Assembly (NCBI GenBank): GCA_963786955.1
Contig: CAWBAT010000005.1
Span: 1,184,001 to 1,248,000 of the forward strand
Source: an uncultured Acidimicrobiia bacterium
GTDB taxonomy: Bacteria; Acidobacteriota; Terriglobia; Versatilivoradales; Versatilivoraceae
DNA: 64,000 nt
Reading direction: 5' to 3'
Part shown: positions 26,763-56,437 of the stretch, one piece after another
Layout: each line of letters opens with the position of its first letter
How positions within the stretch are numbered: the first letter of the stretch is position 1
The notes under the pieces: generated by a model
The model's database searches: none
What the model was told of the DNA's origin: nothing
Seen by the model: the letters and a program-made list of their open reading frames with translations, nothing else
Made by a program: the position numbers and the translations under genes

Positions 26763-27569
26763 TCATTGTCTTTGGCGTGTTTTTCGTTGCTCAGCGGCTT
26801 GACAAAGTATGATGGAAGAAGCGACCGCTACATTAAGCGACTCTACTGAAGAGGAAATCGGGATGGTTATCTGGCGCTCGACTTGATCGAGAATATTACT
26901 GTCCAGCCCCCTTGCTTCATTCCCTAAAATTAAGACGACCCGCCCGCGATAATCAATGTCACGAAAGCCATCCCTTTGCCTGGGCCAGTGGCGTATACTC
27001 GGTAGTTGTTTTCGCCAAACAGTGCCAAAGTCGCTTGAATGTCCCAACCAGGAAAACAGGGAACCCGGAACACCGAGCCCGCAGACGCCCGAATAGCCTT
27101 TGAATTATAAGGGTTGACAGAATTCTTGCTCAGAATAATGGCGTCTGCCCCAAAAGCTTCCGCGGAACGCAAAAGAGTTCCCAGGTTTCCAGGATCTTGA
27201 ATGCAATGCGTCAAAGACAATGAGAGAATCTTTGGTAAGAATTCTTTTGAAGCTCCATTTTGGGAGGAATACCAAAGCGGATACGCCCTGAGGCGTTTCC
27301 GTACTGGAAATTTCACTGAAAACCTTTTCGGACAATTGGATGACCGTGGCTTGGTAGGTCTTAGAGCTTTTTAGCAGGTCCTCCAAGAGTTTCATTTTCC
27401 GAGTCTGTTCGCTCACATAAAAGGAGTCCACATCCAAGCGGCTTTTAAGCGCTTCCTCAATGAGCGTAATCCCTTCGACAAGAACACGACCCCGTGAATC
27501 CGGCCAACCTTCTCGAATCTGATCCCTGATTTTTTTGACTTGATTGTTGGCTGTTGAGCGGATGATCAA
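26763..27569 (-). CDS. TrmH-family (SPOUT) RNA methyltransferase; frameshifted
   Basis: [33 protein letters not shown] and VESLNVAVA motifs. Confidence 0.9.
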
Positions 27570-28911: not shown

Positions 28912-30489
28912 TCACTGATTCCTCTTAATTTTCAAGGTCTGGACAAAGTCAAAATTTCCAGCCGGAGACAACTCGATTTCCGAAAGGCGACGGTTGTACA
29001 CGCAAACGGTGTCCATATACCAGAGGCTGATGTAGGGCAGATCATCAGCAAGAATCTTTTGAATTCTGGAATAAGCCGTACGTCTTTTCTCCAGGTTGGA
29101 CTCTTGGCGGGCCTCATCAATCAGCAGGTCCACTTCAGGATTCTCGTATCGACCACGATTATACCCTTTAGGGGGAACTTCGCGGGAATGGAACGCTCTT
29201 TCAAAGAGGTCGGGGTCATTATTTCCTCCAATCCATCGCAGTGAGTAAATTTGAAAATTGCCTCTCACAATGTCTGCATAAAAAGTGCCGAATTCGTAGG
29301 AACGAAGGTCCACCGCAATGCCAACCTCCTTCAAGGCTTGTTGAATAATTGCAGCCACCTGTCGGGAAGACTCCTCTGTAGAGGTCCTGAACGTCAATCT
29401 AAAACGTGGCAGAGGCCCCTTGCCATCGGGATCTTTCCAGCCAGCCATGTCGAGCAGATTACGGGCCTTTTCCGGATCATAGGAATAGCGCTCCAACTCG
29501 GGCTCATAAGCCCAGTGATTCGGAGGAAGCAAACTCGAGGCTGGGATAACCAGACCGCGCCAATAGTAGCGGATAATGTCCTCCCGTGGAATTGCATAGG
29601 CAATTGCTTTTCGTACTTTCTTATCCCGAAGAACGAGATCTTTGAGATTTAATCCGATGTACTGGTAATTGGTTCCTGGAACAGCTCGCCACTCGAAGAT
29701 GGGGTTCGCGCTAAGAGCCATCACGAAATCAGGGGTCAACACGTTTTGAGCAATATCAATGGATCCCTTTCGTAATTCCAAAGCCCGGGTTGTGGAGTCC
29801 GGAATGACCATAAACCGGATGCGGCCTGCGGCGGGGGAGTCCTCCGAAATAGTCGAGATTTGCTTCGAGAAGAAGTTCTTCTTCGTGCGAGTAAGAGACA
29901 AAACGATAGGGGCCCGAGCCTACCGGGTTGCGTTGAAAGTCTTTGCCCGACCCATAGGGTACGATCCCAATCCCTCCGTTTGTCAAGTTCCAGAGAAATC
30001 CGGCAAAAGGTTCCTTCAACCGGAAAACAATGGTGTGCTCATCCGGTGTTTCTATCGACTGGATAAGCTGGAAGGTGGAAGATTTCGGGGAAACGAGCGA
30101 GCCATTCAGGAGAGATTCAAAGGTATATTTCACATCCCTCGCCGTCAGTGGACCTTCCGTCATGAAACTTCACTCCAGACCGGAGGTAAAAGCAGTAGGT
30201 CAGTGGATCGAGGGATTCCCAGCGGGTCGCAAGGTCTGGTAGGATTTCAAATCTTCTTCCCCTACGGACCAGAGAACTAAAAATCAGTTGTTGAATTCGT
30301 TCCGATTCCGCACTTAATCCAATGCGAGGATCCAGACTGGTAGGTCCGGCTTCCAGCGCGATCGTAATGGCTGGGTCCATGGTGCGGGGATGACCCGCAG
30401 CCCTGATGAACACCAGCGAGTATCAAACCTAATACGAGCCACATAGTTTTCCGGGAGCAAAAAATTTTGACTTGTAAGGATTTGAGCAT
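28912..30489 (-). CDS. Peptide/nickel ABC transporter substrate-binding protein (family 5); frameshifted
   Basis: SLDPR, PDLATRW, FHDGxxLTARDVKYTF, PVGSGPYRF, VRKAIAYAI. Confidence 0.9.
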
Positions 30490-30629: not shown

Positions 30630-31828
30630 CTACGAGGCCGGATACGTTTGAAATTCTTTCCGATAAATGATCTTCCCCAAGACCGTCATATGGCGTGCGC
30701 CCGTGGCTGATGGTACATTCCCGGGATGAAAATGCAGCGTCTCATTAGCGAGGATGGCAAAACCAATAGCCTCTTTAGCTATAGACGGGATTCCCAATTC
30801 ATCCGATGCCAAAACATCCAGCTGGGATAAGACTTTCTTGATCCTCTGCATCAGGTAGGAATTTCTGGAACCTCCGCCCGATACAATCAGCTGGCGAATT
30901 GAGGGTTTTCCGAGCGATAAAAGGATCGATGGCCTTCGCAATAGTCTGTACGGTGAGCTCCGTTGCCGTGCATATCAAGTCCTCTAAACAGAAAGAATTT
31001 CCTAATCGAAGCAGTTCTTCGAGGAAAGCCATTCCAAATTGCTCTCGACCTGCCGTCTTCGGAGGGGGAAGAGAGAAGTAAGGTTGCCGAACTAGTTTCT
31101 TGAGAAGCGCCGGGATGATTTTTCCACTTCGGGCGATTTCTCCGTCTCGATCGAATCCCATTTCATTGTGGGTCATCCGTCGGACCAACCCATCAATCAC
31201 CATGTTACCGGGCCCAGTATCAAAAGCCACGATTTCTGCCAGCGTGAGTGGCTGCTGGAAGAACTGTCACATTGGCGATACCCCCAATATTTAAGAGGAT
31301 ACGACCGTGCCGTGGATGTCGAAAAAGCAAATAGTCCACATAGGGGTATGAGGGGAGCACCTTTGCCACCCGCGGCCATATCCCGCGGTCTAAAATCACA
31401 GATCGTCGTTATCCCGGTTTGTTCCGCGATGATTGAAGCTTCCCCAATCTGTAGAGTCGATGCCAAAGTCCGACCGCAAAAGGCATCCGGCTCCGATTGA
31501 TGGAAGATCGTTTGCCCATGGGAACCGACCAGGTCAATCTGGTTGATCTTAACGCGGGCCTCCTCACATAACTTAAGAATCGCCTCTGCATAGAGTGTTC
31601 CGATCAAAAAGTTCATCTGGCTGATCACCTTGGGACGGAACAGGCGATCCTGAAGCGATCTGGAGAAGTTCTCGGTGGACCTCGAGAATCAAAGGGGATG
31701 GAGATAAAATGCCGCAACACAATTCGCGTCTGCCGACCTGCCCCAAAAATCTCCACCAGAGCAGCATCGACACCGTCTAGAGAGGTTCCCGACATTAATC
31801 CGATAACAAGTTTGGAGTTCTTGGGCAA
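30630..31828 (-). CDS. anmK: Anhydro-N-acetylmuramic acid kinase; frameshifted
   Basis: IGLMSGTSLDGVD, GSHGQTIFH, DFRPRDMAAGGKGAPL, FDTGPGN, PPKTAGRE, KEAIGFA. Confidence 0.93.
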
Positions 31829-34453
31829 TTATTCTTCTACTTTCGATTTAAATTCATTCAATTTTTGCAAAGCCTGTAGAGGAGTAAGCTCGTCAGGATT
31901 TATTTGGCGGAGTTCTTCAAGCACTTCATGATCACTCAGGACAAACAAATTCAGTTGATTCTCCAAGGAGGTTTGCTTTCGTTTGAAACTTCGCGTCAGT
32001 TGATCGCTGATTTCGTGTTCCCCCTCTTCATGCTTTTTCAGAATGTCGCGAGCTCTTTCCAAGACGCTGGAGGGGAGGCCAGCAAGCCTGGCGACTTCAA
32101 TCCCGTAACTCTTATCTGCTGCTCCCGGCTCCACCTTTCGAAGAAAAATAATTTCTTGACCCACTTCCTTGACGGAGACATGGTAGTTCTTCACTCCAGG
32201 CAAAAGATCTGCCAGCTCGGTCAGTTCATGGTAATGAGTCGCGAACAAGACTTTGGAACGCAAGTGACAATGGAGGAATTCGATGACTGCCCAGGCTATC
32301 GCCAATCCATCAAATGTGGCTGTTCCGCGTCCAATTTCATCCAAAATGACAAGGCTTCGGGAAGAAGCGGCATTGAGAATCACTGCCGTTTCGGTCATCT
32401 CAACCATAAAGGTGGAGCGGCCGCGTGCGAGATTATCGGTTGCGCCGATTCGAGTGAAAATACGATCAATCAGCGGCAATCGCGCATAGTCTGCCGGGAC
32501 AAAAGAACCCATTTGCGCCATGATGGAAAAAAGAGCCGTCTGCCGGAGGTACGTCGATTTTCCTCCCATGTTTGGTCCGGTAATGATGAGGATTTGATCG
32601 GTGGAATCATTTAGATAGAGATCATTGGGAATGAACTTTCCAAGCGAAAGTTGATCGGTGAGCTGTTCGATGACCGGGTGGCGACCTCCTTTCACGATAA
32701 ACTCGCCATCGGGTGCAATTTCTGGTCTGACATAAGAATGGGAATGCGCCACTTCAGTGAGAGAAATCAAGCAGTCTAATTGTGCCAGGGCCGATGCGCA
32801 TCGCCTGATCCGTCACTGCTTCCAGCGCAACTTTGGAACGAAGTTCTGTAAAGAGCTCATATTCAATTTCTACCATCCGGTCTTCTGCCCCAAGAACTTT
32901 ACGTTCATATTCCTTTAGTTCAGAAGTTGTAAACCGCTCAGCGCCGACCAGGGTTTGTTTCCTTTCGTAATGTGAAGGAACCAGGCCCAGATGGGACCTG
33001 GACACCTCGAGGTAATATCCAAAAATGTTATTAAACCTTACCTTTAGATTACTAATCCCGGAAAGAGAACGTTCACGGGACTCCAATTCTGCGATAAATT
33101 GCTTCCCTGAGGTACTGATCTGACGAAGCTCATCGAGCTCACTATGGTAGCCCTCTCGAATCAATCCGCCCTCAGTGAGCAGGATAGGAGGGTTATCTTT
33201 TAGAGCTTTTCCGATGAGTTCGGCAACGTCCTCCAATGGATCTGCCAAGTGGTTCAGTTCTTGGAGGCGCCGCGTGGCGAATGATCCCAAGCGGGTTTTG
33301 AGGAAAGGGATTTGTTCCAGGGATTGTCGGAGAGCGACAAGGTCCCGCCCGTTGGCTGTAGACAGCGTTACCTTGGAAAGCAATCGCTCGACATCGTAGA
33401 CCTTCTGAAGAAGTTTCTTAATTTCTTCGCGCTCGATCAATTTCCCTTTTAGTTCAGTAATGACATCTAGCCGCAATTGGATCTCGTTCAAATCAATTTC
33501 AGGGCGCAGCAACCAGCTTCTGAGCAATCGTGCGCCCATGCCCGTCGAAGTTCGATCCAGACAAGAAATCAAAGTCGCATGTCTGGTACCGTCGAAGAGA
33601 GATTCCACTAACTCAAGGTTACGGACCGTCGAGGAATCCAGTACCAGTGCTCCGCTCAGATCGTAGTATTTCAAATGGTCGATATGGCTTAGCCGGGCTT
33701 TCTGGGTGTCCTTCACATAATGTAAAACTGCTCCAGCCGCGGCCACAGCGAGCTTACGATCCTGGCAACCGAATCCTTCAAGGCTCATCACTCCAAAATG
33801 CTCGGTCAGCGTGCGTTCGGCGTAGTCTGTCGAAAAGATCCAATCTTCAATGATTGTTTGTGACGGGATAAACTGGACAATTTGGTGAAGCCTTTCGTGC
33901 GGCGGGAGAGAGGCATGAATCAGTTCTTTTGGTCTAAGGCGTTCTAGCTCGGTCTGAAACTGTTCAAAGCGTTTTCTCCCTTGAACTCCGTGGTCTGAAA
34001 GTCTCCCGTCGAAATATCGAGGGAAGCCAGGCCCACGCCGCTCCGATCTACCCACAGGGCACTCAAGAAATTGTTCTCCTGTGGTTCCAACAGGTTTCCG
34101 TCGGCAACCGTACCCGGAGTCAATACTCGGCTGACTTCCCGTCGAACCAGTTTTTGTGAAGGTTTGGGTCGTTCAACTTGGTCGCAGACGGCAATTTTGT
34201 ATCCTTTCCTGACGAGTTTTGCCATATAACTGTCTGCGGCGTGATACGGGACTCCACACATGGGTACGGACAGCCCTTTTTCCTTGTTTCGGGAAGTGAG
34301 GGTGATCTCCAGTTCACGGGAGGCGACTACAGCGTCCTCAAAGAAGAGTTCATAGAAATCCCCCAGACGAAAGAAGACGAGCGCATGCGGATATTCTTTC
34401 TTCACCCGATGGTACTGCGTCATCATAGGGGTTGAGGGTTCCATGGAATCCAT
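31829..34453 (-). CDS. mutS: DNA mismatch repair protein MutS; frameshifted
   Basis: [59 protein letters not shown]. Confidence 0.96.
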
Positions 34454-34655
34454 TCTCCCTTGGCAGGAGGGGTCATGCGGAGAAACGGTTGGTGCCAAAA
34501 ATCCTGGAAGTATATAATTCCGGTGTTTACGAGTGTCAACGCGACCCGTTCCCGGTTGGCGGGCCTCGTGTACACAATACATTTAAACTCCGCATAGGGA
34601 GAAAAGAAAAAAGATCTTCTCGTGTTTTCGAATTCTCTGATGTGACCTCGGTCAA

Positions 34656-45636: not shown

Positions 45637-46380
45637 TTGTCCTACAGACCCTTGATTGGAATCTCTTGCCGGATGGACGTCGGGGGAGATCGTTTTTATT
45701 TGAGGAAACAATACAGCGAAGCGATTGCTCATGCCGGAGGGTCCCCATTGCTCATCCCTCTGATCCCGGACAAGGCTTTTGCTGACGAGTTAACGACACA
45801 TCTTGACGGCATCGTCCTCTCGGGCAGCAATAGTGATGTGGATCCGAATCGCTACAAACAGGAGCCCCACCCAAAGATCGGATCCGTCTTGACACGACGC
45901 GATCAAACCGACTGGTTATTACTCGAAGGTGTTTTTAAGAAAAAGAAACCATTACTGGCGATCTGTTTTGGCATCCAAATTCTCAATGTTTATCTCGGCG
46001 GCACTCTCTGGCAAGACATCCCATCCCAAGTCAAAGACGCTGTGAAACATGATCAGTCGTCTTCGGAAGATTACCACTCGCATTCGCTTCGCATTAAGCC
46101 CGGGTCCCTCCTCGATTCGTTGGCGGGGGTCCAGAAAATCAAAGTCAATAGTTACCACCATCAAGCCATTCGCGAACTATCGCCAAAGCTCATATCCGTT
46201 GCCAGTTCCCCGGATGGGATCGTAGAAGCAGTCGAGCTTCGGACAGGTAGGCAATTTTTGTTGGGCGTGCAATGGCATCCGGAGATTGGCTGGGAAACCG
46301 ATGATCTTTCTCAGAAGATCTTTCGTTGCTTTGTCGCCGCCGCAAAAAATTCTGTTCAAGGAAGGAAGAGAAATGCGTGA
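45637..46380 (+). CDS. Gamma-glutamyl-gamma-aminobutyrate hydrolase family protein (peptidase C26, PuuD-like)
   Basis: AICFGIQ nucleophile elbow, VNSYHHQA, GVQWHPE. Confidence 0.92.
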   Translation: MSYRPLIGISCRMDVGGDRFYLRKQYSEAIAHAGGSPLLIPLIPDKAFADELTTHLDGIVLSGSNSDVDPNRYKQEPHPKIGSVLTRRDQTDWLLLEGVFKKKKPLLAICFGIQILNVYLGGTLWQDIPSQVKDAVKHDQSSSEDYHSHSLRIKPGSLLDSLAGVQKIKVNSYHHQAIRELSPKLISVASSPDGIVEAVELRTGRQFLLGVQWHPEIGWETDDLSQKIFRCFVAAAKNSVQGRKRNA

Positions 46381-47532
46381 TCTGCAGAAGGAAGACAGAC
46401 TTGCGATTTTTTCCCTTTCTGCCGGTCATTTCATCAGTGATGCTTATTCCAATTTTCTCGGCCCGTTGCTCCCACTGCTTGTCCTGAAGCTAAAACTCTC
46501 GATCGCCCAAGCAGGCTGGTTGGCAGCCATGCAGGTGATCTCCTCGTCATTGACACAACCGGCTTATGGATACCTTTCAGACCGCTATCTCAAGCGCCTT
46601 TTTGCAGTCTTCAGTCCACTCGTAACGGTCGTCTTCATGTCGTTCCTGGGGGTGGCCCCGAATTACCTTACCCTGGCTCTGCTGTTGCTTTGTGGAGGAG
46701 TCGGGATTGCCTCGTTTCATCCTCAAAGTGCAGCTCTCGCCTCCTCGGCCAGTAGGCACCGCAAAGGGTTGGGGATGTCTATTTTTGTGACTTCGGGAAC
46801 GATCGGGTATTCACTGGGCCCGGTGATCATTACTTCCGCGGTTGCTACCTTTGGACTCGAGCGGTCTTATTGGGTCATGGTTCCGGGAGTTGCTCGTCTT
46901 CTTCCTGCTCTACTTCTCCGTTCCTACAACGCCGCACTCGACCAAGGTCAGAGAAAATGTGAATCTGAAAAAGGCGATAAAGGCGGTTTGGTATCCGCTT
47001 CTTATCCTCTTCCTTTTAGTGGTTATTCGTTCCGCCCTTCAAGTCTGTTTTGTGAACTTTCTGCCTCTTTACTTTTCTCAGAAAGGGGCAACACCAACAA
47101 TGGCCGGCAAGATCACGACCCTTTTCTTGTTTTTTGGCGCGGTAGGAGGTTTTTGTGGAGGAGCCAGTTGCAGACAGGTTAGGCGGGAAAAACGTCATTT
47201 CTTGGTCCATGTTTCTTTCAACCCCACTGCTCTTGGCCTTTCTGCTGAATAGCGGGAGCCTCTCCTATGTCTTCTTGGCGGCCGCAGGACTGGCTTTACT
47301 CTCTACTTTGCCGGTGAATGTTGTCATGGCTCAAAATCTGATGCCGCAGAGCTCCAGCGTTGTTTCTTCATTGATGATGGGGCTTGCCTGGGGGACAGGG
47401 GGAATGGTCGTCCCGATTATCGGAATCATTGCTGATGTGGCGGGTTTAGCTCGTGCCCTGATGGTAGTCTCCCTCCTCCCGATCTTGGGTTTCGCCTTGG
47501 TGCAGTTTTTGCCTACACGCTATATGGAATAA
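46373..47532 (+). CDS. MFS transporter (Fsr-like); frameshifted
   Basis: GHFISDAY, QPAYGYLSDR, FHPQ, ADRLG; hydrophobic throughout, across frames. Confidence 0.88.
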
Positions 47533-48833
47533 TCCACGTCTTCCGGGGCCGGCAAGGTTTTATTGGGCTCAAGAAGCATTCCAGCACCCACTGTCGCGTT
47601 ACTCCGTTCATCGATCACAATGAACCCGCCCAGTTGACGATTGCGGTAATAATCATCGAATGCGATCGGGGTGGCGGTGCGCAGATTGACCTTGCCAATT
47701 TCATTTAATCCGAGGGTGGAGGCGCTTTCTTCTTCGAGAGTCTCAATGTTCACTCGGAATTGGAGATTAGTGAATGCTACTTTTGTGGAATTGGCAGTGT
47801 GCTTGATCCAATACCGTTTTCCCATTTGCATGGGTGCTTCATGCATCCAACAGAGAAACGCTTCGGCTTCTTTCGCAACGATCGGCAGATCATCGACTGG
47901 AGCGATCAGATCACCTCTTGAGATATCGATATCATCATTCAGCAAAATGGCTACCGACATCGGGGCTCGAGCCACTTTGATTGTTTTTCCCATCAATTCA
48001 ATGGATCTAATTCGAGAACATTTCCCTGAAGGCAGCACCATCACCTTTTCACCGACTCGGAACACCCCGCTGGCGATTTGTCCGGCATAAGCTCGATAAT
48101 CCCGGTACTCTTCCGATTGCGGACGGATAATCCACTGAACCGGGAAGCGTGCGTCCCTCAAATTCCAGTCACTTGCAATATAGACATCTTCCAGAAAACC
48201 GAGCAGCGGCTCGCCCCTGAACCAAGGCATGTTTTCGGAACGCTCGACCACATTGTCTCCCTGGAGAGCGCTCAACGGAATACATGAAATATGTTTGATG
48301 GAAAGTTGGGTTGAAAAAGCGGTGAAGTCAAGCCGGATACTTTCAAAGACTTCTTCTGAATAGTCGACCAGATCCATCTTGTTGACACAGAGTACGAGAT
48401 GCGGGATACCCAGAAGTGAAGCGAGATAGCTGTGACGTCTGGTTTGTTCAACCACTCCTTTGCGTGCGTCCACAAGAATTAAAGCCAGCGTGACATTCGA
48501 TGCCCCCGTGACCATATTTCTCGTATATTGAATATGGCCTGGCGTGTCAGCGACAATAAATCGTCGCTTTGGCGTCGCAAAGTAACGGTAGGCTACATCG
48601 ATCGTAATCCCCTGCTCCCGCTCTGCTTTGAGTCCGTCGGTCAAATTTGCAAGGTTTACATCGGCCTCTCCTCGCATGACACGGGTACGTTCAAGTGCTG
48701 CCAGTTGATCCTCGAAGATGGATTTCGAGTCCTGGAGGAGTCGTCCAATGAGCGTACTCTTCCCATCATCCACGCTTCCGCAGGTGGAAAAACGAAGCAA
48801 TTCAATTTCCTTTTTTAGTTTTCTCTCTGGCAT
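47520..48833 (-). CDS. cysN: Sulfate adenylyltransferase subunit 1 (no fused CysC domain)
   Basis: CGSVDDGKSTLIGRL, EREQGITIDVAYRYF, DTPGH, NKMD, TVGAGM; ends in DVDYSI. Confidence 0.96.
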   Translation of the reverse strand: MPERKLKKEIELLRFSTCGSVDDGKSTLIGRLLQDSKSIFEDQLAALERTRVMRGEADVNLANLTDGLKAEREQGITIDVAYRYFATPKRRFIVADTPGHIQYTRNMVTGASNVTLALILVDARKGVVEQTRRHSYLASLLGIPHLVLCVNKMDLVDYSEEVFESIRLDFTAFSTQLSIKHISCIPLSALQGDNVVERSENMPWFRGEPLLGFLEDVYIASDWNLRDARFPVQWIIRPQSEEYRDYRAYAGQIASGVFRVGEKVMVLPSGKCSRIRSIELMGKTIKVARAPMSVAILLNDDIDISRGDLIAPVDDLPIVAKEAEAFLCWMHEAPMQMGKRYWIKHTANSTKVAFTNLQFRVNIETLEEESASTLGLNEIGKVNLRTATPIAFDDYYRNRQLGGFIVIDERSNATVGAGMLLEPNKTLPAPEDVDYSI

Positions 48834-48835
48834 CC

Positions 48836-49742
48836 CTAGAAGTACCCCTCGCGTTTTCTGTCCTCCATGGCACTCTCCGAACGCCGATCGTCTGCCCTGG
48901 CTCCTCGCTCGGTAACCCGAAACGCGGAGATTTCCTGGATGATCTCTTGCACCGTTCTCGATTGAGACTCGATAGCCGCAGTACAAACGACATCTCCGAC
49001 CGTTCGGAATCGGACGGATTTACGTTCGATTCGTTCGCCCTTTCGAAGCGGTAACAGTTCGGACTGACTCATCCACATCCCTTCACGCAGGAAGACGTCA
49101 CGTTCATGGGCAAAATAGATCTCTGGAATTTCAAGATTCTCTTCCTGGATATACTGCCAGATGTCCATCTCGGTCCAGTTAGAGAGCGGAAACACCCGGA
49201 TATGCTGTCCTGGAGAAATCTTGGCATTATAAAGATTCCACAATTCAGGACGTTGATTCCGCGGGTCCCATTGGCCAAATTCGTCGCGAAACGAAAAAAT
49301 ACGTTCCTTAGCTCTGGCTTTTTCCTCATCGCGCCGAGCTCCTCCAAAGGCTGCGTCAAATTTGAAATCTTCAATGGCGCTGAGTAGGGTTGGAATCTGC
49401 AGCCAGTTTCGGCTCTTATCGGGTCCCACGGGCTCGGCGGCAAGCCCAGCTCTGATGGCATCATCAACAGATCGAACAATAAGACGCTCACCGAGTTGTC
49501 GCGATTTTCCGATCTCTGAATTCAATGACTTCGGGGAAATTATGTCCTGTGTCGATATGCAGCAAGGGAAATGGAAAATGCGCTGGCCTGAAGGCTTTTT
49601 CGGCCAGCCTTAACATGCATATCGAATCTTTCCCTCCAGAAAAGAGCAAGACCGGCCGCTCGAATTCGGCTGCCACTTCGCGCATGATGTGAATGGCCTC
49701 GGCTTCCAGCACATCCAAATGAGATAATAAATAACTATCCAT
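48836..49742 (-). CDS. cysD: Sulfate adenylyltransferase subunit 2; one apparent frameshift
   Basis: [50 protein letters not shown]. Confidence 0.96.
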
Positions 49743-49935
49743 TGCTGAATCTCTATGAAAGTCAAGAATTCGGCTCGAGCTCTTTAAGCCCGGGTCCCCC
49801 TATAGTCAGTGCCGGTTAGGCAAGCTGAGCATGGTTGTCCTTCCGCAACTGACGCAAGGATGGCCTGAATGTTTCTTCACTATTCAACTTGACGTTTTCC
49901 TGCCTATTCAATCGCGTCGAACCGCAACCCATGGG

Positions 49936-50016
49936 ATGTGTTCAGCCTGAAAAGGCTGAACACATTTTAGCCGGGGGGAACGCGCCGGGCTCCGGAGTTA
50001 AGGGGCCTTTCAGGTC
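49936..50016. repeat. Perfect 13-bp hairpin in a CCTGAAAGG-type REP-like element
   Basis: ATGTGTTCAGCCT-GAAA-AGGCTGAACACAT, then AGCCGGGGGGAACGCGCCGGG and a complementary GCCTTTCAGG at 50005-14. Confidence 0.55.
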
Positions 50017-50077
50017 GTTGGTTCGTTGCTGGCACCAACCTCTTTAACCTAGGAATAGCGAAAATTTGCAAACTCGA

Positions 50078-50112
50078 AGGCCGTCATTCGCCAGTTTGCG
50101 GAACGACGGCCT
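50078..50112. terminator. Stem-loop downstream of cysH
   Basis: AGGCCGTC...GACGGCCT inverted repeat 25 nt after the cysH stop; no clear U tract. Confidence 0.35.
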
Positions 50113-50137
50113 CACCCCAGAATTCTGCAATCCAAAA

Positions 50138-50866
50138 CTAAGTCCGGAGCTGTTTGTCATCCTTCCGATGCAGCCCGCATTCCTTATGTTCAGGCTCTTC
50201 CCACCACCAGCGCCCGGCCCGGAGGCCTTCGCCAGGTTTGACCGCTCGAGTGCAGCAAGAACAACCAATACTTAAGAAGCCCTGATCGTGAAGGGGATTG
50301 TAAGGAACATGGTGTTCTTTCACAAACGTTTGAATATCCTGTTCAGTCCAATTCCAGAGAGGGTTGAACTTTACAAGCTCGTTAGCGGCATCCCACTCAA
50401 CAACGTCAACCTGCTGGCGTGTCAGGGCCTGTCCGCGCCGCAGGCCGCAAACCCAGGCATCTAGTTTCCCGAGTGCCCGCTTCAGGGGGTGTAATTTTCT
50501 AACCGAGCAACATAGCTTCCGTTTATCGATGCTCTGATAAAAGAGATTGATCCCATGGTCTCGCACCATCGATTCCACTTCATTTGACTCTGGGGCATAG
50601 ACTTCTATCCGAATCCCGTAACGAGATTCTGTTTTCTCTATGAGATCGTATGTTTCTGAGAAGAGCCGGCCCGTATCCAAGGTAAAAATTCTCATTAATG
50701 GGGCAACATCGGCAATTAAGTGGGTTAGAATCTGGTCTTCAATTCCTAGAGAAGAAGCAAAAGCCACCTTGGGGCCGAATCGGTCCTGAATTCGCGACAA
50801 GACCTCTGGGGCACTTCGGGAAGCTAGTTCCTTAGATAACTCCTGAAGCTGCGAATCATTTGACAT
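50138..50866 (-). CDS. cysH: Adenosine-5'-phosphosulfate reductase ([4Fe-4S]-type CysH)
   Basis: FTLDTGRL, KLCCSVRK, SIGCSCCT, GRWWWE and ECGLH motifs. Confidence 0.94.
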   Translation of the reverse strand: MSNDSQLQELSKELASRSAPEVLSRIQDRFGPKVAFASSLGIEDQILTHLIADVAPLMRIFTLDTGRLFSETYDLIEKTESRYGIRIEVYAPESNEVESMVRDHGINLFYQSIDKRKLCCSVRKLHPLKRALGKLDAWVCGLRRGQALTRQQVDVVEWDAANELVKFNPLWNWTEQDIQTFVKEHHVPYNPLHDQGFLSIGCSCCTRAVKPGEGLRAGRWWWEEPEHKECGLHRKDDKQLRT

Positions 50867-50894
50867 TTCAGGCACCATTCTTTGATTCTTATTA

Positions 50895-50950
50895 AACATG
50901 ACTAAACCAATAAACTTAATCAATATATAATCTTAATTGTCTCTGGTCAA
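50895..50950 (-). promoter_or_regulatory. Sigma70 promoter of cysH-cysD-cysN with downstream operator-like box
   Basis: Minus strand: TTGACC-N17-TATATT, then TTAGTCATGTT 16 nt after the -10. Confidence 0.7.
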
Positions 50951-50986
50951 CCCAAATTAGGTGTCACGTGACTGTCCCAATTTCAG

Positions 50987-51042
50987 TTGACGCAGATCCA
51001 TTGAAAGGATATATTGGCAATCTTGATATCATTAGTCATGTT
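50987..51042 (+). promoter_or_regulatory. Sigma70 promoter of rrf2-cysK with downstream operator-like box
   Basis: TTGACG-N17-TATATT, then TTAGTCATGTT 16 nt after the -10. Confidence 0.7.
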
Positions 51043-51057
51043 ACTCATTTATTTACT

Positions 51058-51495
51058 ATGAGATTATCTACCAAAGGTGAGTACGGTTTGCTGGCCGTTA
51101 TTGATCTGGCGCTGAATTACGGCCATGGACCCATCCAGAGTCTGCAAATTGCAGAACGACAGCAAATTCCAAAACAATATCTAGATCAGCTCATGCTCCT
51201 TCTCAGGAAGGGAGGCTTGGTCGAAAGTTCAAGAGGACGACAAGGAGGCTATCAGTTGGCCCGTCCTCCGAAGGAGATTACTCTTTTTGATATTGTCACG
51301 GCATTAGAGGGTCCCGTTGAGAACATTAACTTTTTAGAAAAGACCCCTCACAAGCGAACTCCAGCAAGGGAAGTTTTCAAAGATATCTGGAGTGATTTGT
51401 ATTCCAACACAATCCAGATTTTGCGTTCGAAAACCATTGAAGAGTTCAGCGAACGTCACCGGAAGCTGGAGAAGGAAATCATGTACTACATATAG
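51058..51495 (+). CDS. cymR: Rrf2-family transcriptional regulator, CymR-like
   Basis: MRLSTKGEYGL, IAERQQIP, YLDQL, RGRQGGYQLA; no IscR-type Cys; C-terminal IMYYI; directly upstream of cysK. Confidence 0.85.
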   Translation: MRLSTKGEYGLLAVIDLALNYGHGPIQSLQIAERQQIPKQYLDQLMLLLRKGGLVESSRGRQGGYQLARPPKEITLFDIVTALEGPVENINFLEKTPHKRTPAREVFKDIWSDLYSNTIQILRSKTIEEFSERHRKLEKEIMYYI

Positions 51496-51504
51496 GAGAA
51501 AATC

Positions 51505-52458
51505 ATGGCGAAAATTGCAAACAGTGTTCTGGATTTGATGGGAAACACTCCATTGGTTCGTTTAAACAAAGTCACCGCCGGTGCCTATGCCACGGTTCTG
51601 GTGAAACTGGAATCGCATAATCCCGCAGGAAGCGTGAAAGACCGGATCGGCATTAGCATGATCCAGGAAGCAGAAAAGAGCGGCCAGATCAGCAAAAACA
51701 CTGTGATCATCGAGCCCACAAGTGGTAATACCGGGATTGCTTTGGCGTTTGTTTGTGCCGTAAAAGGCTACAAGTTGATTTTGACAATGCCGGACACGAT
51801 GAGCCTGGAGAGAAGGACTCTTCTGAGGGCTTTTGGAGCAGAACTCGTGCTCACTCCAGGGTCCGAAGGGATGAAAGGGGCGATCCGAACGGCCGAAGAG
51901 CTTGCCCAGAAGACCCCCAATTCCTGGATTCCGCAGCAATTCAAGAACCCCGCCAACCCGAAGATCCATCGTGAAACGACAGCGGAAGAAATCTGGAATG
52001 ACACGGACGGTCAGGTCGACATCTTCGTCAGCGGAGTCGGGACCGGCGGAACGATTACAGGAGTTGGAGAAATCATCAAAGCGCGCAAGCCGAGCTTCCG
52101 GGTTGTTGCCGTGGAACCGGTCGATTCACCCGTTCTCTCGGGAGGAAAGCCCGGGCCGCATAAGATACAGGGGATTGGCGCCGGATTCATTCCTGATATT
52201 TTGAACACCAAAGTGATCGACGAGGTCATCCAGGTGACTAATGACCAAGCCATTCAAACAGCCCGCCGACTCATCAAAGAAGAAGGTTTACTGGTTGGGA
52301 TTTCTTCAGGAGCAGCGGCCTATGCGGCACTTCAGCTGGCCAACAAAAAAGAAAACGCCGGGAAAACGATCGTAACGATTCTGCCCAGCACCGGAGAGCG
52401 ATATTTGAGTACGGTCCTCTTCGCCGATTTGGCCAATCCTGCTCCGGCTTCACTCTAG
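51505..52458 (+). CDS. cysK: Cysteine synthase A (O-acetylserine sulfhydrylase)
   Basis: [48 protein letters not shown]. Confidence 0.97.
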
Positions 52459-53170: not shown

Positions 53171-56100
53171 TTACCTTCTATTAGTCTTTACATTCGCAAT
53201 GTTGGAGTAAGCGGAATTGCCAACTGTGTTGTAGCCACGAACACGATAGTAGTATCTTGTATTCGTTGAGAGGCCCGTGTTTGAGTAGGTGGTCACATTC
53301 ACGCCCACAGTGGCAATCTGGGTGAAATTTGTTCCGTTGACGGACCGTTCAATCATAAACCCATCTTCATTGTTGGCATTGTCCCTCCAGGCCAGGTTAA
53401 TCTGGCTTGTTGAAATGGCCGTCGCCGTCAGATTGGTGGGAGTGGCTGGCGCCGCCTGCGGAGTCGCGCTGGCTTGAGCTGAGTTGGCGCTTTCCCCGCT
53501 GGTGTTGACCGCCGAGACCACGTAGAAATAGGGGGTGGCGTTGGTCAGCCCGGTGTCGGTATAGCTCGTGGTCGTGGGGCTGGCGAGGGTGGTGTAGGGG
53601 CCGCCACTGGTCGTCGAGCGCTTCACATTGTAGCTGGTCGCTCCACTAGAAGCCGTCCAACCGAGCGCCACCTGGGCATTGCCGGCCGTCGCCGTCAGAT
53701 TGGTGGGAGTGGCTGGCGCCGCCTGCGGAGTCGCGCTGGCTTGAGCTGAGTTGGCGCTTTCCCCGCTGGTGTTGACCGCCGAGACCACGTAGAAATAGGG
53801 GGTGGCGTTGGTCAGCCCGGTGTCGGTATAGCTCGTGGTCGTGGGGCTGGCGAGGGTGGTGTAGGGGCCGCCACTGGTCGTCGAGCGCTTCACATTGTAG
53901 CTGGTCGCTCCACTAGAAGCCGTCCAACCGAGCGCCACCTGGGCATTGCCGGCCGTCGCCGTCAGATTGGTGGGAGTGGCTGGCGGACCCACCTCATCAG
54001 CCGCAACACTTGTAAGTCCAAAATCAGCGTTTAAGTTGGAACTTCCTCCTGAAAGAAAGAATCCTATGCCCGGACTACCAGTTGTGTAGGTATTGTCAGT
54101 AGCTGTCACTACCTGGACGTTATTGACATAGCCTGTAATGACATTTCCTACGATAGTCGCTTTTATTGCTATTCCATTTGTAATATAGCTTGATGAACCA
54201 CTACTGGCATTGCCTATAACGGTAAAACTACCGATAGGTCCATTCCACCGAACAATTTGAATCCACACGCTAGAGTTATTGATACATCTAAAATTAACCT
54301 CGTACCCTGTAATGCTATGTGCTGAAATACTTGTACGAAGTCTCAGTTCAACTTCCTCGCTCACTGACGAAGTCTGGTTGACCGTATAGACATTTGCAGT
54401 AATCGTTTGATCTGGTGCCCATGTTCCAGCTAAAATGGCAGTTGAGTCACCGTAGTAATTGCCTGTGCCTGGAACTTGAGTGCCAAATGCTTTCCCTGGA
54501 GTCGTCCTAACATTATTCCAATCAAGACCGACCGTCCCTCCGCTAACCCAAGCTCCACCCTCTGAAATGGGGTTCTCCGTAAGAGGAAAATTGGTGGTGT
54601 AGGAATTTGCAGAAGTACTTTGAGCGAGTAAATTTACGGTAGTGTTATCGGGAGAGCGCTTGATCTTGAAGCCGTCCTGACGGCTATTATTACCGGTCGA
54701 CGTTAGGTCGATCTGGCGGGAGGAGATGGCAGTAGGAGTGGGGCCGGAGGGCGCATCCGGCGGTAGAAGGCGATCTGGCATGCGGAAGGCGAAAACCGGA
54801 TCGGTTGTGCGATTGACGAGAATGAACGCGTCGACTGATGGCACATAGCGCCAACGGCTGTAAGTACCATTCGAATTGGGTGCCGTTGGTATAACCGAGT
54901 TTGTCGCCGAAGCAACAACCTTGGCCCAAACCCATGACTCCGTCTTCCAATCCCCTGAAGGGGGAGTAAGCGTGTAGACGCTCGATCCCGAATAGCACCC
55001 CACGAAACGCTTGCCGACTGGATCCCAATCAAAACCGATCGCTGAAACGTTTTCGAGTGTCTTGTCGCCAACCGTGGAAACAGTAACAGCCACATTTTCG
55101 GGCGCCTTCAGTTCATGTACTCTGACCATGTGAGAGCCGCCCCCATCAACAGTGACCATCAGGTCGCGAGTCGGGTCGATTGCGGATGCAGCATCCATCT
55201 CAAGATACTCCGTCGTATATACCGTCCATGCTCCTATGCCAGCATCTGCGTTTGGATCAAACTTCGCAAACGGGCTGGTGAACGCCGGCCACACCCAAAA
55301 CACATCGCGGATTGAATCGTAGGCGGTTGTTGTGCCTGTCTGACTGTTAATTGCGGGATGGTTTGGGGCGCGGTGCCATTGACGTGTGTCCAGATTAAGC
55401 AGGTGGACGTGGGACGTTCCACAGACGCCGCAATTCTGTAATGAAGCGCTACCCAACAACACGAAAGAGTTTGTGCCTGGGTGATAGTCCACGTAGTCGT
55501 AGGTGTGCCGGGCGCAAGGACTGCCGTCCTGTAGTTGGCCGATGCTCATGTCGCAGTTCGGGTTGACGATGGGTTCTGTAAATCGTGTCCAGAGCCCATT
55601 CCCAATATCAAATAGGTACACCTCATTACCAAGGTAGTCGCTATCGCCACCACCAAAGACCATGTATCCCCCGCGTGTGCCGTACCTTGGAGAGACGGCC
55701 CCGCCGCTCCAGGTATCGATTACTCCCCGCTGGCCGATCAAACCGGAATACGTGCAGTTATTCAGTGGGCATGGATCCAAATCTTTGATTGTATTATGCG
55801 AGATTATCCCCCACTCGCCTGGAGCTATACTTAGCGTTGTAAATGTAAAGTCATCACTAATCGAGGAGTTCCCCCAAGCGTCTTTGGATTTCACTCGGTA
55901 ATGATACTGGGCATGAGCCGTGAGACCTTTGATTGCTAGAGAATGGGAAGTAACCAGTGCAGTATTTAAGGTTGTCTGTGATCCGTATGAAGTCGTCGAG
56001 CCATACTCAACTTGAGAATCCGCGTTTTCGTTTGTCGACCAGGTGATCGTTACGCTTCCCGAATTAATGTTTGTCGATTGAATTCCGGAAATTGTTGGAG

Positions 56101-56437
56101 CTGTGGTGTCCACTGCCTTTGAAACTGTAAAGGTAGGGCTAGAGCTTGTGAATTGATTGTCAGCGGCGTGGCTAGCAACAGCACCGGTCGTGCGCGACCC
56201 ATTTGTTGTACTCTCCGTATCCCAGGAAAGTGAATCAGGCCACGCCAGGTCTTGCACTCTTAAATTGTTCTGGCCGTCAAATAAGACAACCTTATTGACA
56301 GGATTATATTCTGCATCATTTAGTCCTAGTCCACTCGCAATTCCTGGGCATACCATGGAAATAGAAAGTAACAAAGATAAGGGTAAGCGTGTCATTGCAT
56401 TGATTTCTCGTCTTGCCCTTTTCACTGCCCTCTCCAT
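53171..56437 (-). CDS. Large secreted multidomain protein: Fn3-like domain, putative beta-propeller, putative beta-sandwich domain and three C-terminal Fn3 domains
   Basis: Signal-like N-terminus; ITWSTNE...YGSTTSYG...YHYRV; Trp/Gly-rich repeats; PATPTNLTAT...YFYVVSAVN x2; AISTSQINLAWRDN...YYYRVRGYN. Confidence 0.88.
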   Translation of the reverse strand: MERAVKRARREINAMTRLPLSLLLSISMVCPGIASGLGLNDAEYNPVNKVVLFDGQNNLRVQDLAWPDSLSWDTESTTNGSRTTGAVASHAADNQFTSSSPTFTVSKAVDTTAPTISGIQSTNINSGSVTITWSTNENADSQVEYGSTTSYGSQTTLNTALVTSHSLAIKGLTAHAQYHYRVKSKDAWGNSSISDDFTFTTLSIAPGEWGIISHNTIKDLDPCPLNNCTYSGLIGQRGVIDTWSGGAVSPRYGTRGGYMVFGGGDSDYLGNEVYLFDIGNGLWTRFTEPIVNPNCDMSIGQLQDGSPCARHTYDYVDYHPGTNSFVLLGSASLQNCGVCGTSHVHLLNLDTRQWHRAPNHPAINSQTGTTTAYDSIRDVFWVWPAFTSPFAKFDPNADAGIGAWTVYTTEYLEMDAASAIDPTRDLMVTVDGGGSHMVRVHELKAPENVAVTVSTVGDKTLENVSAIGFDWDPVGKRFVGCYSGSSVYTLTPPSGDWKTESWVWAKVVASATNSVIPTAPNSNGTYSRWRYVPSVDAFILVNRTTDPVFAFRMPDRLLPPDAPSGPTPTAISSRQIDLTSTGNNSRQDGFKIKRSPDNTTVNLLAQSTSANSYTTNFPLTENPISEGGAWVSGGTVGLDWNNVRTTPGKAFGTQVPGTGNYYGDSTAILAGTWAPDQTITANVYTVNQTSSVSEEVELRLRTSISAHSITGYEVNFRCINNSSVWIQIVRWNGPIGSFTVIGNASSGSSSYITNGIAIKATIVGNVITGYVNNVQVVTATDNTYTTGSPGIGFFLSGGSSNLNADFGLTSVAADEVGPPATPTNLTATAGNAQVALGWTASSGATSYNVKRSTTSGGPYTTLASPTTTSYTDTGLTNATPYFYVVSAVNTSGESANSAQASATPQAAPATPTNLTATAGNAQVALGWTASSGATSYNVKRSTTSGGPYTTLASPTTTSYTDTGLTNATPYFYVVSAVNTSGESANSAQASATPQAAPATPTNLTATAISTSQINLAWRDNANNEDGFMIERSVNGTNFTQIATVGVNVTTYSNTGLSTNTRYYYRVRGYNTVGNSAYSNIANVKTNRR
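53417..53985. repeat. Exact in-frame tandem duplication, 267-bp unit (89-aa Fn3 domain) x2 plus 35 bp
   Basis: Unit starts at 53417, 53684 and 53951; the two full copies are identical by eye. Confidence 0.93.

Follow-up and report, generated by a model that had tools for sequence, protein, structure and literature searches.

A conserved isoleucine-ended tail on the ATP sulfurylase subunit CysN, a predicted client of the CysK docking site

The closest described system is the cysteine synthase complex, in which serine acetyltransferase, the enzyme that supplies CysK with its substrate, carries a C-terminal tail ending in Ile, as in M. tuberculosis CysE (DFSI), Arabidopsis SAT (DYVI), and the H. 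influenzae enzyme (...MNLNI). PDB entry 2ISQ is presumably an OASS holding the Arabidopsis SAT C10 peptide with its DYVI end. According to the literature, MtbCysK1 was crystallised with the native MtbCysE tail DFSI (PDB 2Q3C), in agreement with the preliminary description of our locus, which had cited this tail as a CysK ligand; the plant SAT peptide YLTEWSDYVI is likewise an OASS ligand, EWSI and EFSI peptides are CysK binders, and about 80% of the binding energy comes from the C-terminal Ile. Moonlighting clients of CysK have also been described, in E. coli 536 the CdiA-CT toxin, whose tail is GYGI (PDB 5J43), and in C. elegans EGL-9, which has CYSL-1 as its partner. In Bacillus subtilis, CymR and CysK form a repressor complex (Tanous et al., 2008, cited in PMC12895370), and CymR bears a C-terminal Ile motif (PMC12895370).

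The locus analyzed here lies in a window (the whole stretch of DNA that was analyzed) of 64,000 nucleotides from a soil-type bacterium, and its features are as follows.

46286..47532, plus strand: convergent MFS transporter gene in three frames, the last of which (47155..47532) shares 13 bp with the cysN stop region
47520..48833, minus strand: cysN, sulfate adenylyltransferase GTPase subunit, 437 aa plus stop (NCBIfam TIGR02034)
47523..47576, minus strand: CysN C-terminal tail of 18 residues, LLEPNKTLPAPEDVDYSI, a proline-rich linker followed by the D-Y-S-I terminus
48836..49742, minus strand: cysD, sulfate adenylyltransferase small subunit, in two frames (NCBIfam CysD profile)
50138..50923, minus strand: cysH, thioredoxin-dependent APS-reductase type with CC...CxxC cysteines (NCBIfam), start codon uncertain
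50924..51057, no strand: AT-rich divergent intergenic region between cysH-D-N and Rrf2-cysK, with one promoter-like site per strand
51058..51495, plus strand: CymR-like Rrf2 regulator, 145 aa, no cysteine, ending IMYYI (tail codons 51478-51492)
51505..52458, plus strand: cysK, O-acetylserine sulfhydrylase A, candidate docking partner of CysN (NCBIfam TIGR01139)

The CysN protein belongs to NCBIfam TIGR02034, scoring 561.9 bits against a cut-off of 336.1 over model positions 1-406 of 406, with cysD immediately upstream. Its ORF (47520..48986, minus strand) terminates in ...TVGAGMLLEPNKTLPAPEDVDYSI, and the model stops at ORF residue 471 of 488; the likely start is the ATG at 48833, 2 nt past the cysD stop, which gives 437 aa. 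Assignment as a bifunctional CysNC (NF004035) was rejected at 648.3 bits, below the cut-off of 715, with only profile positions 19-434 of 632 matched. CysN stands alone, having no APS-kinase domain and stopping 18 residues past GAGM. The nearest solved structure is 1zun_B (residues 10-421 matched, E = 1.1e-135), and the protein is the same three-domain EF-Tu-like GTPase as in Pseudomonas syringae CysDN (PDB 1ZUN) and in CysN/CysNC of the E. coli type; however, the P. syringae CysN construct stops directly past GAGMII and has no Ile tail. Reading codon by codon (stop codon 47520-47522, tail codons 47523-47576) gives exactly 18 residues beyond GAGM, confirming the extension of about 18 aa ending DYSI-stop that the preliminary description had reported, and this terminus provides a free C-terminal Ile after a small and an aromatic/hydrophobic residue. 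An AlphaFold2 model built on the 72-sequence alignment shows CysN residues 421-437 without secondary structure, with the pLDDT falling along the tail from about 70 to 48 and lying below 50 for residues 434-437, and the tail is thus predicted to be flexible and disordered, set off from the core by its linker.

A survey of CysN C-termini for D-[YF]-x-I had been suggested. Among the 120 CysN proteins most similar to this one (59-99% identity), 114 have a [YF]-x-I terminus, and two of the six that do not have it are fragments. The terminal tetrapeptides of the tailed homologues are DYAI (61), DYSI (12), GYVI (10), and DYVI (9), plus others. In an alignment of 72 CysN sequences, the rows of which are 58-76% identical to the query, column entropy is 0.11 at I437, 0.25 at Y435, and 1.22 at D434, compared with a core mean of 1.02, and it reaches 2.7-2.9 at positions of the linker, where P423, P428, P430, and E431 are also conserved. 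These column values show strong purifying selection on Tyr(-2) and Ile(0). The tail might nevertheless be thought an artefact, either of indel read-through in an error-prone assembly or of constraint coming only from the overlapping MFS gene; the window does contain many frame-split genes, and the final 13 bp of cysN are shared with the convergent MFS frame (47155..47532, plus strand), just as had been reported. However, the same tail length and terminus recur among those 114 homologues, on many independent contigs and in several phyla, and a 99%-identical protein of equal length on another contig (P0001, with its cluster members) bears the same tail. The chance that the tail is an artefact is negligible, and its recurrence refutes that reading, including the form raised in the preliminary description, in which the tail would be a non-conserved by-product of the 13-bp overlap.

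In a FastTree phylogeny of 342 CysN proteins, the 114 tailed and 5 untailed sequences fall in one clade with support of 100, and IQ-TREE with the tail columns removed gave a set of 43 rows with 99% SH-aLRT. The source names of the tailed proteins are Acidobacteriota, Terriglobia, and Verrucomicrobiota. The main tailed clade has essentially one origin, and the 114 proteins do not represent 114 independent events, so that the argument rests on the column-specific conservation. The tail motif was found in none of 79 CysN C-termini taken from 80 loci of Actinomycetota, Bacteroidota, and other phyla, which stop 0-8 residues past GAGM or run on into APS kinase. In three other CysN lineages a degenerate APS-kinase-like domain ends in EWVI, EFSI, or SYTI, and forcing the aromatic-x-I CysN into a single clade was rejected (AU p = 6.8e-05, for a group named post hoc). 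Outside the main clade the aromatic-x-I end occurs in 4 of about 224 proteins, in 3 lineages, versus about 1.2 expected, a weak enrichment as judged from these termini. That such ends recur in three further CysN architectures hints that the link to CysK proposed below may have evolved more than once.

These fused relatives also bear on a second explanation, that the tail is what remains of the linker to a CysC (APS-kinase) domain since lost, or else acts as a signal for stability or degradation, and plays no part in metabolic regulation. Many CysN relatives are fused past GAGM to CysC or to degenerate CysC-like domains, the organism, whose CysH is of the APS-reductase type, needs no kinase, and C-terminal hydrophobic residues can serve as protease tags. 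However, under decay Tyr(-2) and Ile(0) would not surpass the catalytic core in conservation among rows that are only about 58-76% identical, the fused CysNC linkers that were inspected do not have the E-P-x-K-x-x-P-x-P-E pattern, and the recurrence of aromatic-x-Ile on the three degenerate-kinase lineages points to selection on the terminus itself. We regard a remnant or degradation signal as improbable.

The preferred reading is that the CysN tail docks on CysK. The tail motif matches that of known CysK ligands by direct comparison of termini (plant SAT DYVI and MtbCysE DFSI), and the tail consensus in the family is ...P-x-P-E-[YF]-x-[DG]-Y-x-I-COOH; the CysN studied here, ending ...PEDVDYSI, has Asp at position -5, where an aromatic residue stands in the consensus as well as in the plant SAT peptide, and this counts against docking. 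The candidate partner is well suited. It scores 489.3 bits with TIGR01139 (cut-off 350.95) while CysM falls below its cut-off (NCBIfam), and it aligns without gaps to MtbCysK1 (2q3b/2q3c/2q3d; E = 4.6e-134), its T72, S73, and Q145 corresponding to Mtb T71, S72, and Q144. Across 33 homologues, residues T72, S73, G74, N75, T76, Q144, and Q145 do not vary, and the cognate enzyme is therefore an OASS-A, not a CysM, that keeps the residues binding the Ile carboxylate. The likeness to the cysteine synthase complex lies in the flexible tail of acidic/Gly-aromatic-small-Ile-COOH type, in the CysK-type OASS with intact TSGNT loop and Gln, and in the shared pathway, and by analogy the docking of the CysN tail would be expected to be sensitive to O-acetylserine (OAS). 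The carrier differs, since in place of the acetyltransferase that supplies CysK with substrate, the predicted client here is the GTPase subunit of ATP sulfurylase, which catalyses the first step of the pathway. As with CdiA-CT and EGL-9, an unrelated protein would have gained a C-terminal Ile motif of the CysE kind and with it CysK as a partner, and the GYGI of CdiA-CT is near the GYVI of 10 tailed CysN. Those clients, however, come from outside sulfur metabolism and have CysK as an activator or sensor, whereas CysN is a pathway enzyme with a motif inherited vertically in a large clade.

We consider it probable, from the comparison of termini and binding-site residues, that CysN represents a new class of client for the known CysK docking mechanism, and we found no published description of such a CysN tail. 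In the mechanism that we put forward, the tail would act as a flexible docking peptide that imitates the serine acetyltransferase C-terminus. Its terminal Ile would enter the active-site cleft of CysK, whose gene lies three genes away, and the TSGNT loop and Gln145 would hold the carboxylate. When OAS is low and the CysK site is empty, CysD-CysN would be tethered to CysK; when OAS accumulates and fills the site, CysD-CysN and CysK would be released. Docking may thereby wire sulfate activation directly to cysteine synthesis. A tail lying in the active site would also inhibit CysK, so that the physiological benefit is not obvious, a point that counts against docking.

The tail could instead bind or regulate another partner in sulfate assimilation (CysD of the CysDN heterodimer, CysH, which as APS reductase uses up the CysDN product, or sulfite reductase) or fold back on CysN to regulate it, the likeness to CysE being coincidental, and this we hold to be unlikely. 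A conserved, flexible tail would suit any partner, cysD and cysH directly adjoin cysN, and the conserved linker residues P423, P428, P430, and E431 suggest contacts beyond a four-residue plug. Nevertheless, we know of no interaction of CysD, CysH, or CysN that uses a C-terminal Ile. The CysDN complex in 1zun was solved with CysN ending past GAGMII, so the tail is not needed for CysD binding, and both the likeness over seven residues to known CysK ligands and the Ile-tailed CymR-like neighbor would have to be accepted as a double coincidence.

The Rrf2 ORF (50968..51495, plus strand) has a KEIMYYI end and a likely start at the ATG at 51058, and cysK begins 10 bp past its stop codon; the ORF coordinates bear out the earlier statement that a protein ending IMYYI and cysK share the locus. 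It is a member of the Rrf2 superfamily (TIGR00738, 118.2 bits, cut-off 73.3, NCBIfam), and its sequence offers no Cys to ligate an Fe-S cluster. Ile is the last residue in 117 of 120 Rrf2 homologues (YYI in 105, YHI in 9, and YEI in 3), and the solved Rrf2 protein 4cic_A likewise ends GYMYYI; the regulator thus combines the conserved C-terminal Ile tail and the cysK neighbor of a CymR-type CysK client. B. subtilis CymR itself, according to the preliminary description, ends MFYI, and the solved construct (2Y75) is truncated. The locus resembles the CymR-CysK system in having a cluster-less Rrf2 protein with a conserved C-terminal Ile directly upstream of cysK, but it differs in that the regulator scores 112.7 bits, below the cut-off of 195, with the CymR equivalog NF047409 (although it aligns end to end, 1-139 of 139), in its host, an acidobacterium-like lineage, and in its second Ile-tailed protein, CysN, which is undescribed for Bacillus. 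The window has 428 stop-to-stop frames of 60 aa or longer; 5 of them end in [YFW]-x-I, and the only two family-supported genes among these are both in the cysN-cysK locus; with a chance rate from composition of about 0.55% per protein, the Ile-tail pattern in this locus is above chance.

Co-occurrence with cysK or a tailed Rrf2, which the preliminary description had proposed to survey, extends beyond this locus. Among 119 CysN hits, 18 have a longest contig equal in bp to that of a listed tailed Rrf2 or CysK hit, linkage being inferred solely from contigs of identical size. Eleven of these matches are on contigs of 25 kb or less and one, of 1958 bp, is doubtful; the count for tailed CysN is at least 17, and further matches exist. 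For Rrf2 and CysK, 18 pairs involving 17 Rrf2 hits are on contigs of identical bp size. By comparison, cysK was found within the 10 kb flanks of none of the 80 loci of tail-less CysN from other phyla. It should be noted that linkage of cysN and cysK would be equally expected of a pathway operon without physical contact.

As had been stated earlier, no serine acetyltransferase gene (cysE) was found in the window, by Pfam on 59 of 96 ORFs of at least 110 aa and by NCBIfam on 11 ORFs of the locus; the ORFs outside the Pfam scan are overlapping shadow frames, and small or split genes might escape. The sole hexapeptide-repeat protein (8456-10036) was rejected as cysE, being fused to a GFO/IDH/MocA oxidoreductase and located in a sugar cluster.

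In the same mechanism, the CymR-like repressor would bring its own conserved Ile tail (MYYI) to CysK and compete with the CysN tail, CysK forming a single OAS-sensitive hub for a transcription factor and the first pathway enzyme. We put forward tentatively that in the large clade of Acidobacteriota, Verrucomicrobiota, and their relatives CysK is a shared OAS sensor with one pocket that holds the CymR-like repressor and CysDN. If so, one metabolite would switch transcription and sulfate activation together, the hub would replace the role played elsewhere by the CysE-CysK complex, and the CysDN held by CysK through its DYxI tail would be the first and energetically most expensive enzyme of the pathway. 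CysN-CysK binding, its OAS sensitivity, the competition with CymR, and any effects on ATP sulfurylase or CysK activity are what we infer from the protein sequences.

The promoter-like sites of the divergent region run from 50950 to 50922 (minus strand) and from 50987 to 51015 (plus strand), with 10/12 matches each, and in total the scanned region contains no more of these sites than expected from shuffling. The two cysD pieces (48836-49525 and 49488-49742, with the frame change at about 49505-49510) cover positions 3-82 and 81-301 of the 301 of the CysD profile (NCBIfam), and because cysD is frameshifted, CysDN in this particular sequence may be non-functional unless the frameshift is an assembly error. 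Many genes in the window are split between frames, cysD and the MFS gene among them, and of the latter only the first piece gives MFS family matches, which are weak (NCBIfam). CysH scores 283 bits with NF002537 (cut-off 154) and 257.8 bits with TIGR02055 (cut-off 235.3; both NCBIfam).

The sulfur-assimilation locus in the window is divergent, with cysH-cysD-cysN on the minus strand and the gene for an Rrf2-type regulator followed by cysK on the plus strand, and it consists of the following genes:

50138-50923, minus strand, cysH (NCBIfam NF002537, 283 bits against a cut-off of 154; APS-reductase model TIGR02055, 257.8 against 235.3)
48836-49525 and 49488-49742, minus strand, cysD in two frames, the pieces covering CysD profile positions 3-82 and 81-301
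47520-48833, minus strand, cysN (NCBIfam TIGR02034, 561.9 bits against a cut-off of 336.1)
51058-51495, plus strand, Rrf2 regulator (Rrf2 superfamily, 118.2 bits against 73.3; start ATG identified in the sequence)
51505-52458, plus strand, cysK (NCBIfam TIGR01139, 489.3 bits against a cut-off of 350.95)

The start ATG of cysN, at 48833, lies 2 nt beyond the cysD stop, and at the other end of the gene 13 bp of the stop region are shared with a convergent MFS frame. The CysN protein ends in ...TVGAGM-LLEPNKTLPAPEDVDYSI, which extends it by 18 residues past the end of both the family model and the P. syringae construct 1zun_B, and the Rrf2 protein, which contains no cysteine, ends in KEIMYYI. What the preliminary description had observed is right in every detail, namely the 18-residue CysN extension ending in DYSI, the Rrf2 protein ending in IMYYI with cysK in the same locus, and the absence of cysE from the window, no serine acetyltransferase being found in the 59 ORFs scanned with Pfam (from 96 window ORFs of at least 110 aa, the remainder being overlapping shadow frames) or in the 11 locus ORFs scanned with NCBIfam. 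The sole hexapeptide-repeat acyltransferase of the window (8456-10036, minus strand) is fused to a GFO/IDH/MocA oxidoreductase and surrounded by a sugar-modification cluster with an aminotransferase, epimerases and a glycosyltransferase; it is no serine acetyltransferase.

The conservation of the tail excludes that it is an artefact of assembly, of a frameshift or of the MFS overlap, the last of which the preliminary description had itself allowed for. When CysN was searched against a 5.8-billion-protein collection and the best 120 homologues were taken (59-99% identity to the query), 114 of them were found to terminate in [YF]-x-I, mainly as DYAI (61), DYSI (12), GYVI (10) and DYVI (9), with smaller classes making up the rest. 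The six exceptions include two fragments, the database matches P0002 ('partial' according to its source, stopping at GAGM) and P0066 (335 aa); P0088 ends in EYVV, and P0089, P0091 and P0117 have different ends. The CysN ORF of the window is uninterrupted and has a counterpart elsewhere that is 99% identical. Column entropies were taken from an alignment of 72 CysN sequences with 58-76% identity to the query, where the core has a mean of 1.02, Ile437 has 0.11, Tyr435 has 0.25 and position 434 (Asp, Gly or Glu) has 1.22, while position 436 is variable (2.28, mostly Ala, Val or Ser) and the linker columns reach 2.7-2.9. Pro423, Pro428, Pro430 and Glu431 are likewise conserved, and the tail consensus reads GAGM-[LI]-x-E-P-x-K-x-x-P-x-P-E-[YF]-x-[DG]-Y-x-I. 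Tighter constraint on the terminus than on the catalytic core, combined with a spacer that drifts, is what characterises a docking peptide carried on a flexible linker. In an AlphaFold2 model built from the same alignment (mean pLDDT 77.8, pTM 0.73), residues 421-437 have no predicted secondary structure and the confidence falls below 50 at residues 434-437. We consider it quite improbable that the tail is left over from a lost CysC linker or serves as a degradation tag, as neither sits easily with a terminus that exceeds the core in conservation, and the E-P-x-K-x-x-P-x-P-E pattern is missing from the CysNC linkers examined.

CysK is the textbook example of an active site that also serves as a docking socket for proteins, and its known clients are CysE, CymR, a contact-dependent toxin as well as a nematode oxygen sensor. 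According to three sources, the terminal Ile of the client is essential for binding to CysK and provides ~80% of the binding energy, and O-acetylserine (OAS) dissociates the complex (PMC5562914; PMC12895370; PMC9547175). One of them (PMC12895370, 2026) names as clients CysE, the CdiA-CT toxin (GYGI), EGL-9 and B. subtilis CymR, and CysN is not listed there. The known ligands include the native MtbCysE tail DFSI (crystal 2Q3C) and the tetrapeptides EWSI and EFSI (PMC9547175), as well as the plant SAT peptide YLTEWSDYVI, a ligand of OASS, that is, of CysK (bioRxiv 10.1101/2024.02.03.578754). A change of Phe to Tyr is all that separates the DYSI of the window CysN from DFSI of MtbCysE. The consensus of the tailed CysN clade, E-[YF]-x-D-Y-x-I, runs parallel to the final seven residues of the plant SAT peptide, although the window tail itself has Asp at position -5 where both the consensus and the peptide have an aromatic residue. 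The window CysK scores with NCBIfam as CysK and not CysM, aligns without gaps over 308 residues with MtbCysK1 (2q3b/2q3c/2q3d; E = 4.6e-134), and retains T72, S73 and Q145, whose Mtb counterparts T71, S72 and Q144 are the residues binding the Ile carboxylate. We propose, with somewhat better than even confidence, that the CysN tail docks in CysK's active site as does the tail of CysE. Docking on another partner (CysD, CysH, sulfite reductase or CysN itself) would account equally for the conservation and flexibility of the tail, but we regard it as unlikely, since both the seven-residue match to CysK ligands and the second Ile-tailed client in the locus would be left unexplained, and the CysDN complex was solved without the tail (the P. 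syringae 1zun construct). Among the CysK matches, P0391 is a homologue of 475 aa with an internal duplication of ~160 residues from the TSGNTG loop, which probably arose as an artefact when its source contig was assembled.

A FastTree phylogeny of 342 CysN sequences (the homologues, representatives at 50% identity, and CysN read from 80 genome loci) places 114 tailed and five untailed CysN in a single clade with a support of 100. The clade is recovered by IQ-TREE with the tail columns removed, as 43 rows with an SH-aLRT of 99, one of these being the divergent match P0133, which ends in TWEI. By their source names the members are Acidobacteriota, Terriglobia and Verrucomicrobiota, one cluster carries the label Acidimicrobiia, and the nearest named relatives of both the window CysN and the window CysK among the matches listed are Terriglobia MAGs. 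The sister group and the wider CysN family lack the tail among the 80 loci listed from a genome comparison set of at least 80 cysN loci (Actinomycetota, Bacteroidota, Chlorobiota and others; 55-62% identity). Specifically, 78 of these CysN stop 0-8 residues past GAGM, one continues as a CysNC fusion and one was unparsed; no aromatic-x-Ile end occurs in the CysN parsed from the 80 loci, and cysK is absent from the fetched flanks of all 80 of these tail-less cysN loci. A tblastn search of plasmids with CysN gave, among the best 25 of 372 records, only one match that reached the tail region, in a Streptomyces plasmid; it extends to query residue 434, but the gene as annotated stops 15 bases short of the end of the match.

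Five of the 150 CysN representatives at 50% identity end in aromatic-x-Ile, and besides P0133 these are the sisters P0182 and P0227 (both EWVI), P0153 (EFSI) and P0188 (SYTI). In the latter four, CysN is followed by an APS-kinase-like domain that is degenerate and in part truncated and whose P-loop is eroded, and their ends are of the terminus type of the known CysK-binding tetrapeptides. Constraining all aromatic-x-Ile CysN to a single clade was rejected (AU p = 6.8e-05), for a group that was defined after the tree had been inspected and that includes some long branches. Outside the clade such ends occur in four of ~224 proteins, in three lineages, a mild excess over the ~0.55% expected per protein. 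A repeated origin of aromatic-x-Ile ends on CysN is suggested by these data, not decisively.

As an indirect proxy for synteny, two protein matches were paired when their longest contigs were identical in bp. By this measure 18 of the 119 CysN matches pair with a listed Rrf2 (10) or CysK (9) match, with 11 of the 18 on contigs of at most 25 kb and one pairing, at 1958 bp, possibly a coincidence. The same proxy yields 18 Rrf2-CysK pairs (17 Rrf2 matches), and members of the window's CysN cluster give further pairings at 49178, 72690, 168198 and 185750 bp. These identical lengths indicate, indirectly, that wherever the tail occurs the cysN/Rrf2/cysK neighbourhood is conserved as well. The Ile terminus of the regulator is itself retained in 117 of 120 Rrf2 homologues (YYI 105, YHI 9, YEI 3), the other three being truncated by their appearance. 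The window Rrf2 finds its best structural match in PDB 4cic_A (153 residues), an Rrf2-family regulator that terminates in GYMYYI, which is the same type of tail, and hence this regulator of known structure may be a CysK client so far unrecognised; PDB 2y75 (B. subtilis CymR) is a truncated construct of 129 residues.

In the hypothetical mechanism that we propose, every step beyond the likeness of the tail to CysK ligands is one that we infer. At low OAS the empty CysK pocket would take the Ile tails of both the CymR-like repressor and CysN. Once OAS is high, with sulfide limiting, the CysK site would be closed by the substrate and both tails would be freed, and by analogy with Bacillus the CymR-like repressor complex would then fall apart so that the cysHDN and Rrf2-cysK units are derepressed. 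Promoter-like sites run from 50950 to 50922 and from 50987 to 51015, such sites being no more numerous than expected by chance. The simplest model for CysN would be mutual sequestration or inhibition that blocks ATP- and GTP-consuming sulfate activation when there is no acceptor. As the tails of CysN and the repressor would need the same pocket, rising CysN levels would titrate CysK off the repressor. The docking mechanism is already well known, so CysN would represent a new class of client and not a new principle. If the proposal is true, a client at the entry of sulfate assimilation would constitute a new regulatory logic, in which ATP- and GTP-consuming sulfate activation is coupled post-translationally to the availability of the carbon acceptor, in abundant and poorly studied soil phyla. 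The sequence rule of a C-terminal [DEG]-[YFW]-x-I would help to find further CysK clients in genomes. The preliminary description knew of no account of such a CysN tail, and a full-text literature search of ~8.4 million papers and preprints, mostly outside subscription journals and supplements, likewise found neither the tail nor a contact of CysN or ATP sulfurylase with CysK.

It should be noted that cysD is one of several genes split between two or three overlapping frames, together with glnE, a MiaB-like radical-SAM gene, mgsA, a SpoU methylase gene, an SBP_bac_5 binding protein gene, anmK, mutS and the MFS gene (stretches 17430-19760, 22011-23135, 25430-26728, 26930-27569, 28912-30163, 30799-31628, 31829-34582, 46286-47532 and 48836-49742). 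This points to an indel-rich assembly of the window or to widespread pseudogenisation, and it leaves uncertain whether CysDN as encoded here is functional; the frame shift in cysD is near 49505-49510, away from any long homopolymer. Between cysH and cysD lies a gap of 395 bp (49743-50137) without a convincing ORF, and within it a perfect 13-nt inverted repeat with a 4-nt loop (49936-49965) could be an internal terminator, attenuator or operator. Rfam returned no families on the whole window, and thus no riboswitch that would explain the gap. Adjoining cysK is a gene (53171-56437, minus strand) for a secreted-looking protein of 1088 aa, for which NCBIfam gives a single match, weak and limited to the C-terminal portion of an exoglucanase model, and in which a unit of ~90 residues (...PATPTNLTATAGNAQVALGWTASSGATSYNVKRS...) is present in two identical tandem copies.
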